A stretch of 36,877 nt of DNA from a virus (Duplodnaviria > Heunggongvirae > Uroviricota > Caudoviricetes). Below are positions 18,001 through 21,000 of this stretch, piece after piece (the first letter of the stretch is position 1; every line of letters begins with the position of its first letter). Position numbers: made by a program. The stretch lies in the IMG/VR virus record IMGVR_UViG_2874927903_000002, one strand, 5' to 3'.

Positions 18001-21000
18001 ACGGCTGGGACGGAAGTCGCTGTCGTTCTCAAAATCGGTGGAGCTGCATGACAAAGTCATCGGGCATTATCTGAACATAAAACACTATCAATAAGTTGGA
18101 GTCATTACCCGGTTGGGGATCACCAGCCTTGAAGAGTATGCCCGCCACTTTAACTGCGTGATACGGAATTTTTAAAAATCACTAAAGAACGCCCAAGAGC
18201 ATGTTTTTTATTTAGAAGAATCAAAGCGTTGTATTTCCATGTCATATAAAAATCGGCAAAGTTCATATGTAACAAAGTGTCCCAATCATGCCCCAAAATG
18301 CCCCACAACAAATATTTTTGCCCCATGCATGCCCCAAAAAATCACTTTCCTTCACCCTTGATACTGTTTATCCATACAGTTAAAAATGATACTGTATACA
18401 AACACAGTGTAGAGGGACTTTTATGCGTATTGAAATCTGCATAGCCAAAGAAAAAATGACTAAAATGCCAACCGGTGCTGTGGATGCGTTAAAGGAAGAA
18501 TTAACCCGACGCATCAGTAAACGTTATGACGATGTAGAGGTGATCGTAAAAGCTACCAGCAACGATGGCCTTTCTGTTACGCGCACCGCCGATAAAGATT
18601 CAGCTAAAACTTTTGTTCAGGAAACTCTGAAAGATACCTGGGAGTCTGCTGACGAGTGGTTTGTTCACTAATTAGCACGTAAAATCTGTAACGGCTGGAA
18701 ATCATTCAATACTCGCACTATCGGAAGTTCACCAGCCAGCCGCGGTACGTTCTTACATACGATGTACCGCTGTTCTCTTTACGATTTATAGCTGTACTGG
18801 TGAATTATGAGCAATCTGAATCCATGCATGACGTGTGGTGCCTGTTGTGCATTTTCCGCGTCTCTTTTTACTGGGCAGAAGCTGACGATGCTGGCGGAAA
18901 GGTTTCGGTCAGTCTCACTGAGCAAATATCTCCTTTTCATCGCTGTATGCGCGGCACCAATCAGAAAAATCCCCGATGTGGCGCTCTTGCCGGCCCCCCG
19001 GAGAAAACGCATATTGCTCTGTTTACAAAAACCGTCCACATGCAGGGAATTCGCAATGTCCGGCGAAAATAGCATCGTAAATGAAGCATGTAATCGCGCA
19101 CGGGAAAAATATGGATTTCCAAAAATCTGAATATTCTCCGCCGTGCAAAAATGCGAACAACATCACTTCACTAATCAACCTGACATGGCATACTTAGCAC
19201 GCTAACTATGATAACAAACTAATACCCTAAAACTCATGGTTCCGGGACTGGTCGTGGTCCCGTTTTTTTATTCAGCCAGCAGGCCATCCGACAACATAAC
19301 TGCGGATCGCCTTCAGGTCTGTCAGCGCCTCAACCTCGGCTTTCATCTGCAACTGCCGTGTATTAATCTCCACTCCCTTCGCAAACATCGCCTGCTCTGT
19401 CGCTTCACTCAGTGCCATCCATGATGCTGCCGTCATTGGCACATCATTATTATCAGCATCCGTCCGGAAAAATTTCTCTGGCAACTTAAAACAATATCCT
19501 ATATATCCGGCGTCTCCGGTATGTAGAACGTGAAGTTTTTAAAATTATTTATTTACCATTTAACTAATTTTTAGATCCTGGGGTACTCCCGTCTTTTTCA
19601 TTGCCTCCACGAAAGCGGAACTAACAGAACCTGACCAGTAATACTGGAACCCACTAACAACGCCCTGATAAATCATGGTTTGTGTAGCACCACCTACGTT
19701 TACGGTGATATTACCTGCTTTACCACCGGCTAAATAAACAGCAGCTGTCGGTGTAGAGTTCGTCAAAAAGTGAGAAAGTGTAACGACAGCCCCTACCAGC
19801 CTCCCTGATCCGCAGCTTGCGGCGTTTGTAATTGTACCTTTACTTTTTTCTTCTAAAGGCCAGTCAGCGCCAACTGCGCCCCAGTTATCAACCTTGTCAG
19901 AGGATTTCCATTTATAGTACTCAGTTGCAATTTTACAGCCCATAGTTCGCCCAACCATTTGGCTCATCATAAAAGGTTTACTCAGTCCCAGTTTGGTTCC
20001 GGCGGCTCCCATCCACTGCTCACCTGTTTCGCTCTTAGCCGAAGAGCCTACCCATCCCGATGTTACCCCCATCTCATCTCCCCCTTCTGAATGCGTGGGG
20101 TGAGTGTCACCCCACAATTTAAATTCAGTAGAAACCAGAAACTACAACAGCTGTCGTTTACTTCTCCCGGAGTTCTTTAATCTCATGACGAAGTGTTTTA
20201 AAGCCCTCGACTAACAATGCAATTATGCCGTTGTAGTTAAGACGCAGACGTTTTTCACCAGATATAACGTCTGCGTCTTCAGTTACCAGTTCAGGCAATG
20301 CTTTTTGTGCATCCTGAGCAATTAAACCAACCGACGTTTGCCAACCGTCGGCAGAGTACTGTATCTCGTAAAGATAACCAGTAAGTGCCTCCAGACGATC
20401 TAACGCATTATCCAGTTTTACCAGATTTCGCTTGTTGCGTTTATCCGAACGGATCTGAATATCGTTAAATGAGCCGTTTCCGGTCACCGTCAAATTGCCA
20501 TTAATACCACCATTAAAAGTTTGTGCCTGAGTCCATGTATTGGCAGTAGTAAGCAGTTCTGTTCCTTGCCCGGGGGCTCCTGTGTCTCCCTTCGGCCCCT
20601 GAGGACCCGCGGGCCCCGGTTCCCCCTTTGGCCCGGGAGGTCCCACCACGGTGGGGATTCGGTTTACGGCCTCTTCCGCCGCTATCCTGCTTTGTTCCGC
20701 TGACTGTGCGCTTTCTGTTGACTCCCGGGCTTTTTCTGTTGCGGTCGTTGCATCCCTGACTGCATTACCGGCTGCACTTTCTGCCGTCTTTTTTGACAAC
20801 TCAGCATCTGTTGCACTTTGTAATGACTCACTGGCTTTTTGAGCGGCCGCAGAGGCCGAGGACGAGGACGCCTCCTCTGACTGCTTTGCTGAGGCTGCAC
20901 TTTCTGCCGCCTGCCGGGCTGACTCCGATGCATCCCCTGCTGAAGTGTCAGCATTTGCAGCGCTCTCTTCTGCCTGACTGGCTGATATGCCGGCATTCCT

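Follow-up and report, generated by a model that had tools for sequence, protein, structure and literature searches.

In phage lambda, the arm-type sites P1, P2, and P'1–P'3 of the phage attachment site (attP) belong to a heterobivalent tyrosine integrase (Int) that carries an N-terminal arm-binding domain, and they follow the consensus C/AAGTCACTAT. A related organization is apparent in a 36,877-nucleotide stretch of viral DNA (Caudoviricetes; IMG/VR record IMGVR_UViG_2874927903_000002), hereafter the window, in which five repeats of the unit TG(C/T)CCCA at positions 18278–18336 are, judging from sequence comparisons, very probably the arm-type sites of an integrase, in the P arm of a prophage attachment site at yecE. 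As in lambda, the integrase is heterobivalent with an N-terminal arm-binding domain, both arms contain short repeated non-core sites no more than ∼180 bp from the crossover, with 10–11 bp between tandem copies, and the excisionase (Xis) and integrase genes, xis-int, are transcribed toward attP. Candidate sites of DNA-bending proteins between arm and core, recognized here by consensus or conservation only, may be a further parallel. Unlike in lambda, the arm-binding domain belongs to the family PF12167, and a PDB search matched lambda Int only in its catalytic region. Furthermore, the unit itself is a different one and all units share one orientation, the P arm holds three to five units and the P' arm two, versus two and three in lambda (thus mirrored), and the pair of units (dyad) of the P' arm is embedded in the int coding sequence.

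Closer counterparts exist. IntR and XisR of the Rac prophage (E. coli K-12, ttcA) represent the same Int and Xis families and share the same arm architecture, but this Int is 44% identical, the unit is mostly TGCCCCT, attB is ttcA, and the P' dyad is located just downstream of the int stop codon instead of inside the open reading frame (ORF). The function of XisR was shown experimentally in a study that did not describe Rac arm sites (Liu et al., 2015). The integrases of 933W/VT2-Sakai (wrbA) and YYZ-2008 (yehV) are 68–76% identical to the one considered here, and both arms of their attachment sites contain TGCCCCA units in the same geometry; cores and integration sites differ, however, the number of P-arm units is three, four, or five, and VT2-Sakai lacks an adjacent dinI. 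In Tn916 and Tn1549 (DR2-type sites), too, an arm-binding domain, with a three-strand/one-helix fold, reads direct repeats at both ends of the element, but these are conjugative transposons with a different motif. The 933W/VT2-Sakai and YYZ-2008 integrases, like the proteins of a Shiga toxin (Stx) 2a phage, Gifsy-2, and BPP-1, are placed in the "IntBPP-1" subgroup, which is defined by the DUF3596/PF12167 arm-binding domain, whose members were termed putative integrases, and which is closely related to the IntTn916 subgroup (Smyshlyaev et al., 2021). A PDB sequence search found no sequence-level match between the N-terminal domain of the integrase considered here and the arm domain of the Tn916/Tn1549 integrases. 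The kind of element reported here is already known, since attachment sites of the lambda type are expected to be built in this way. The open-access literature searched contained no description of arm sites for PF12167 integrases (an older one is possible), and both the specific unit and layout for this family and the position of a P' dyad inside the int ORF seem to be undescribed.

The Repeat Array in the Phage Arm of attR

The original prediction had reported four TGCCCCA copies starting at 18289, 18299, 18319, and 18330, spaced by 10, 20, and 11 bp and thus facing the same side of the DNA. All four are exact matches on the plus strand (putative arm-type units 2–5; 18289–18295, 18299–18305, 18319–18325, and 18330–18336), and a fifth, degenerate unit with one mismatch, TGTCCCA, can be read on the same strand 11 bp upstream (putative unit 1, 18278–18284). 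The resulting offsets of 0, 11, 21, 41, and 52 bp each fall within ∼1 bp of a multiple of 10.5, so that all units, the additional one included, lie on one helical face as had been proposed. Unit 2 is an invariant column block in the alignment of P arms (alignment A1), and the pairing of units 1 and 2 (TGTCCCA-N4-TGCCCCA) is kept in PhiR49_2, P-EibC, the Stx2 yecE phage, YYZ-2008, and the IMG/VR loci L100 and L133. Units 4 and 5 form a distal dyad, the second unit of which is conserved in the same alignment.

The attachment core of attR is the 21-mer CCGCCACTTTAACTGCGTGAT (18142–18162, plus strand), recognized by its homology to a 21-bp duplication that is curated for Stx phages integrating in yecE (repeat_region in LC567842); this yecE att sequence was established by experiment, from the attP sequences of excised circles (PMC8112680). 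Divergence from native yecE into phage DNA starts at 18161, and the core itself does not contain the TGCCCCA motif. The array is located 126–178 bp from the core center and belongs to the phage arm of attR that lies opposite to the int side. By homology, it is therefore placed in the non-int arm ("P" in lambda nomenclature) of the attP of a lambdoid prophage integrated in yecE. This agrees with the position near the prophage/host junction that had been presumed for it: the yecE remnant occupies 18110–18160, and the junction is at ∼18161. The array is also situated, as originally stated, between an IS1 element (17342–18109) and a dinI-like promoter, upstream of the LexA boxes at 18364–18379 and 18392–18407.

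The Cognate Integrase

Because the window holds neither int nor attL, the cognate integrase has to be deduced from near-identical prophages. E. coli AR_0372 contains an intact prophage with an attR junction that is 99.8% identical to the window, apart from the missing IS1, and the Int of this prophage is 100% identical to that of PhiR49_2. In PhiR49_2 Int (437 amino acids), the N-terminal domain is of the Arm-DNA-bind_2 type (PF12167, E = 1e-23) and precedes a tyrosine recombinase catalytic domain (PF00589); the excisionase encoded by the adjacent gene belongs to the DUF1233 family. A PDB sequence search for the arm-binding domain gave matches in catalytic or core-binding regions only (XerA, lambda Int, and Tn1549 Int).

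A Common Motif in Both Arms

In PhiR49_2 and AR_0372, the P' arm carries the dyad TGTCCCAatgaTGCCCCA on the int side, 73–84 bp from the core center and within the last int codons. A P' dyad was also found in the Stx2-yecE phage, YYZ-2008, VT2-Sakai, L100, PHB10, and K-12 Rac, and when the sites are written in the direction int to P'-core-P, all units are direct repeats in one orientation. An exhaustive k-mer search over five attP types (PhiR49_2, Stx2-yecE, YYZ-2008, VT2-Sakai, and L100; PHB10 and Rac carry the variant unit) identified TGCCCCA as the only exact 7-mer common to both arms, and its sub-words as the only such 6-mers.

The related phages encode integrases with 68–76% identity, and 76–84% in the arm-binding domain, yet they use different targets, namely yecE (Stx2_12E129), yehV/btsS (YYZ-2008), and wrbA (VT2-Sakai). 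In these phages the P' dyad is 55–80 bp and the P-arm array 113–175 bp away from the core, and the units were kept although most of the intervening DNA, from core to array, has diverged. Four P-arm layouts can be distinguished. The window shares the offsets 0, 11, 21, 41, and 52 with PhiR49_2, P-EibC, and L133; L100 has units at 0, 11, 41, and 52, VT2-Sakai at 0, 11, 31, and 42, and Stx2-yecE, YYZ-2008, and L145 at 0, 11, and 22. Unit 3 is thus a feature of the window type, to which a third unit at offset 22 is equivalent in the Stx2-yecE type, and the distal dyad has counterparts at the same offset in L100 (41/52), at 31/42 in VT2-Sakai and PHB10, and at ∼30/41 in K-12 Rac. A search for the array at the ends of related prophages, which had been suggested as a check, accordingly found it at three attB sites and in many species. 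These comparisons indicate that the motif follows the integrase family and not the target gene or the neighboring gene.

The same scheme extends to Rac-type attachment sites. Phage PHB10 (Int 44% identical) has the dyad ttTGCCCCTattaTGCCCCT immediately after int and P-arm units ∼185 bp beyond this P' dyad at offsets 0, 11, 31, and 42, with the unit in its variant form TGCCCCT. K-12 Rac shows the same layout at its two ends, with P-arm offsets of ∼0, 11, 30, and 41, and IntR and XisR fall into the same two Pfam-type families (PF12167 plus PF00589, and DUF1233). Variants of the seventh position comprise TGCCCCG in some Yersiniaceae and Hafniaceae and TGCCCCT in the Rac type (L009 3736–3975; L294/L295); they could help to find a residue of the arm-binding domain that covaries with this position.

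Survey of Integrase Genes and Constraint on the DNA

A profile scan of genome contigs, with one genome per species and homologs picked by protein similarity alone, yielded 80 Int homologs of 48–89% identity from many genera of Enterobacterales. The dyad TG[CT]CCCA-N4-TG[CT]CCCA is present in the last ∼110 nucleotides (nt) of int in 70 of them and a single unit in another three, and several of the remaining homologs have the variant dyad TGCCCCG-N4-TGCCCCG (Hafnia, Rahnella, and Yersinia). These TGCCCCG variants are seen at the int 3' ends of the loci L270, L271, and L286 (Hafnia, Rahnella, and Yersinia pestis). Motif density reaches 0.0119 per nt in the last ∼110 nt of int, compared with 0.00011 elsewhere in the same loci. 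In a reverse survey of IMG/VR with TGCCCCA-N4-TGCCCCA, the dyad was located exactly at the int 3' end in ∼48 of the first 80 loci listed, and other matches were P-arm arrays at yecE junctions, or, in L100, an intact attP with both arms. Relatives retrieved from IMG/VR by their Int protein had at least 90% identity, were mostly truncated at the int end, and thus added little diversity. The unrelated IMG/VR contigs L155 (5945–5984) and L104 (∼958) have four tandem TGCCCCAcccc repeats, or three TGCCCCA repeats with inverted TGGGCA repeats nearby. No Int homolog was found in these two loci, and the repeats are possibly iterons or sites of another system.

With 11 bp from one to the next, the two P' units fall into different reading frames, and they are kept although the C-terminal tail of Int is poorly conserved (36–48% identity). 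We compared 60 four-fold-degenerate codons with conserved amino acids across 77 int genes. At the third base of the two proline codons of the dyad, the most common base accounts for 1.00 and 0.93 of the genes, which makes these codons the top two outliers against a median of 0.40 and a next highest value of 0.74. The dyad is under purifying selection that acts on the DNA rather than on the protein. A separate observation concerns the beginning of the gene, where the third positions of the P-T-G codons in the sequence YPTGVE (int codons ∼6–8; L214–L293) reach values of 0.66–0.74 against the same median; this hints at a second DNA- or RNA-level constraint, related to the xis-int junction or to translation start.

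Alternative Explanations

The original prediction had offered three roles for the array. Of these, integrase arm-type sites gained support, cooperative binding of a regulator, considered here as one of the dinI promoter, did not, and binding of a recombination directionality factor (RDF) is disfavored. It had also named an equally high density of the motif throughout the genome as a finding that would refute it. In the window TGCCCCA occurs seven times versus a chance mean of 6.8, thus without excess, and this count taken alone would suit short-motif copies that came together by chance. Their clustering is nonetheless exceptional, as the array is the densest 7-mer cluster of the window and none of 300 simulated windows (first-order Markov) had four copies of any 7-mer within 60 bp; moreover, the array is kept in diverged relatives with changed flanks, and chance is a practically negligible explanation. 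Alternatively, the array could be a regulatory element (activator or repressor sites, or UP-like) of the LexA-controlled dinI-like promoter 22 bp downstream. It lies close to the −35 hexamer at 18358, and the juxtaposition of array and promoter recurs in the Stx2-yecE phage, YYZ-2008, and L100. But mEp460 and its relatives have the same dinI promoter and gene with homology only from ∼18354 on and without the array (mEp460 also has a different Int, for which a Pfam scan gave no arm-binding-domain match), VT2-Sakai, L133, L145, and PHB10 have the array without an adjacent dinI, and the motif recurs within int in the other att arm. Since the promoter thus occurs without the array and the array without dinI, a dedicated function in dinI regulation is not supported and must be considered very unlikely; as far as the sequences tell, the array travels with the int/att module and not with dinI. 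A host nucleoid or architectural protein that binds the units, or a purely structural role such as curvature in the att arm, would be compatible with the A/T tracts flanking the units. What is strictly conserved, though, is one specific GC-rich heptamer, and its one-base variants (TGCCCCT in the Rac type and TGCCCCG in Yersinia and Hafnia) track Int divergence within the same host group. This indicates a phage-encoded reader and leaves a host protein or a structural role improbable.

Among phage-encoded proteins, the DUF1233-type excisionase of the prophage could use the units as its sites, polymerize on them head-to-tail, bend the arm, and thereby direct excision, as the P-arm direct repeats at ∼10.5-bp phasing resemble the Xis arrays of lambda (X1/X1.5/X2). 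The motif, however, forms a dyad within int in the P' arm as well, whereas RDF sites are normally confined to one arm, and it is the only motif common to both arms; Int, with its arm-binding domain, requires a target. In gel shifts with purified XisR, a 294-bp AttR fragment, which contains attR, was shifted, but not the 291-bp AttM fragment used as negative control (Liu et al., 2015). We mapped the published primers on MG1655 (L294), where AttR corresponds to 1290–1583 and AttM to 1169–1459, and found that both fragments hold the entire Rac array (1317–1353). AttM was not shifted despite containing the whole array; therefore, XisR alone did not bind array-containing DNA. Several points nevertheless weigh against an assignment of the units to Int. 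The window ends before int. A DUF1233 xis is found beside int in 32 of 32 informative loci, so that co-occurrence cannot tell which of the two proteins, Int or Xis, reads the units. The evidence from XisR is indirect, as it comes from one published gel shift with a His-tagged protein and without site-level mapping, and its source is a degenerate cryptic prophage that is only 44% related. The integration host factor (IHF)-like site between core and array is a consensus match only and inexact in some relatives. Finally, phased head-to-tail repeats are typical of excisionase filaments as well. On balance, the interpretation as Int arm-type sites is preferred because the array lies in an att arm, the motif recurs in the other arm, and it tracks an integrase family with an arm-binding domain. 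Int is favored as the reader because this domain needs a target and TGCCCCA is the sole motif in both arms, and it is favored over an RDF because sites in the P' arm are what one typically sees for Int; binding of the units by the excisionase thus appears unlikely, if slightly less so than a host protein or a structural role. We infer that the N-terminal domain of Int is the protein that binds the units, and the assignment of units to integration or excision discussed below is put forward with the same reservation.

XisR left ∼290 bp of phage-side arm DNA unbound and bound only when the core and host flank (1460–1583) were included. A determinant at the core and host flank would be an unusual location for an RDF.

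Candidate Accessory Sites and Proposed Mechanism

Between core and array, the P arm contains a conserved block, AAAGAACGCCCAAGAGC (18184–18200, plus strand; family consensus GAAGAtCGtCCAaGAGC, alignment A1), which is nearly invariant across the yecE, yehV, and wrbA attP types despite their different cores. The block also occurs in the IMG/VR loci L100, L133, L145, and L153, ∼30–50 bp from the att core, and Xis or some other accessory protein may bind there. Further toward the array, AATCAAAGCGTTG (18219–18231, plus strand) exactly matches the IHF consensus WATCARNNNNTTR; this match is conserved in P-EibC, and another exact one is present in the P' arm of PhiR49_2. The arrangement known from lambda makes the block and the matches plausible places for Xis or IHF.

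In the mechanism we propose, the C-terminal domains of a heterobivalent tyrosine integrase would bind and cut the core at 18142–18162, and its N-terminal Arm-DNA-bind_2 domain would bind the 7-bp units, which are direct repeats on one DNA face with the members of a dyad 11 bp apart and with a further dyad in the P' arm. DNA bends between arm and core, at the IHF-like site (18219–18231) and perhaps through Xis at 18184–18200, would let Int protomers, bound to core half-sites as in lambda, bridge both kinds of sites. Such bridging could assemble the intasomes for integration on attP and for excision on attR together with attL. The P' dyad and one P-arm dyad or triad could provide four docking sites for the N-terminal domains of an Int tetramer, and alternative use of P-arm units might set complexes for integration apart from those for excision. 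With 33 bp between it and the core, the IS1 copy would be located outside the short bacterial arm needed for excision.

Implications for PF12167 Integrases

Among the lambdoid prophages of Enterobacterales that the PF12167 family (IntR/Stx-phage Int) mobilizes are many Shiga-toxin phages. Knowledge of the 7-bp unit and its layout, a P' dyad and three to five P units, tells where to direct footprinting and mutagenesis, permits the ends of attL, attR, and attP to be annotated precisely, and marks the extent required of minimal attP substrates. It also means that the constraint on the last int codons stems from a DNA site and not from the protein.

One arm code, consisting of TGCCCCA dyads in a fixed geometry, is common to integrases of different core specificity (yecE, yehV, wrbA, and others), and such integrases are often co-resident in one enterohemorrhagic E. 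coli (EHEC) or Shigella genome. It is conceivable, albeit rather doubtful, that the N-terminal Int domains of one prophage could occupy the arms of another, with cross-talk or competition in integration and excision as the result. If this were true, the Int of one Stx phage might, for example, modulate the excision of another. In prophages like that of the window, the array furthermore abuts a LexA-bound promoter, and, if the proposed function is correct, SOS status could affect intasome assembly.

Host Remnant and Neighboring Modules

The bacterial arm of attR is the remaining 5' part of yecE (18110–18160, plus strand), which translates into RLGITSLEEYARHFNCV and is identical in AR_0372. The gene order of the window is aspS followed by yecD, which is split by an IS110-family element, and in strain AR_0372 yecD and the start of yecE are intact. 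In the window, the yecE remnant is interrupted by IS1 (17342–18109, minus strand), identified by a match to the IS1 end at 18083–18109, the InsA/InsB ORFs, and its left junction, and flanked by CGGTTGG. The IS110-family element, with a DEDD transposase, occupies 15724–16920, and three IS1 ends or copies in the 37-kb window (11136–11162, 17342–18109, and 35141–35167) characterize the host genome as IS-rich. At attL of AR_0372 (L297 14406–15176), the remainder of yecE is annotated as an intact DUF72 coding sequence that starts inside the int 3' end with an overlap of 19 nt. It seems that the disrupted yecE receives a new start and N-terminus from the phage arm, as reported for Rac and ttcA.

Two small ORFs extend over the array (18277–18444 on the plus and 18150–18326 on the minus strand). 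They were rejected as genes: AR_0372 has no RefSeq coding sequence at this position, and the indels between units in relatives (alignment A1) also contradict a coding function.

The only promoter-like site of the region, TTGATA-18-AAAAAT (18358–18387, plus strand), is overlapped by the two LexA boxes, together forming the dinI-like promoter (18358–18407), which belongs to a neighboring module and not to the attachment apparatus. It precedes a DinI-family gene (18423–18671, plus strand; PF06183, E = 1e-19), downstream of which tail-fiber genes are encoded on the minus strand. The double-LexA-box promoter and the dinI-like gene represent a mobile module that is found next to unrelated int/att modules; a different integrase immediately precedes it in mEp460 (L003 2501–2848), and its recombination joint at 18354 is 18 bp past the last arm unit. 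Between dinI and the tail-fiber adhesin gene (18700–19560), only short overlapping ORFs are present and the arrangement differs from AR_0372. One of these, at 18807–19130, starts with a CxxCxxCC motif and has no Pfam match, and the stretch is possibly a decayed cargo gene.

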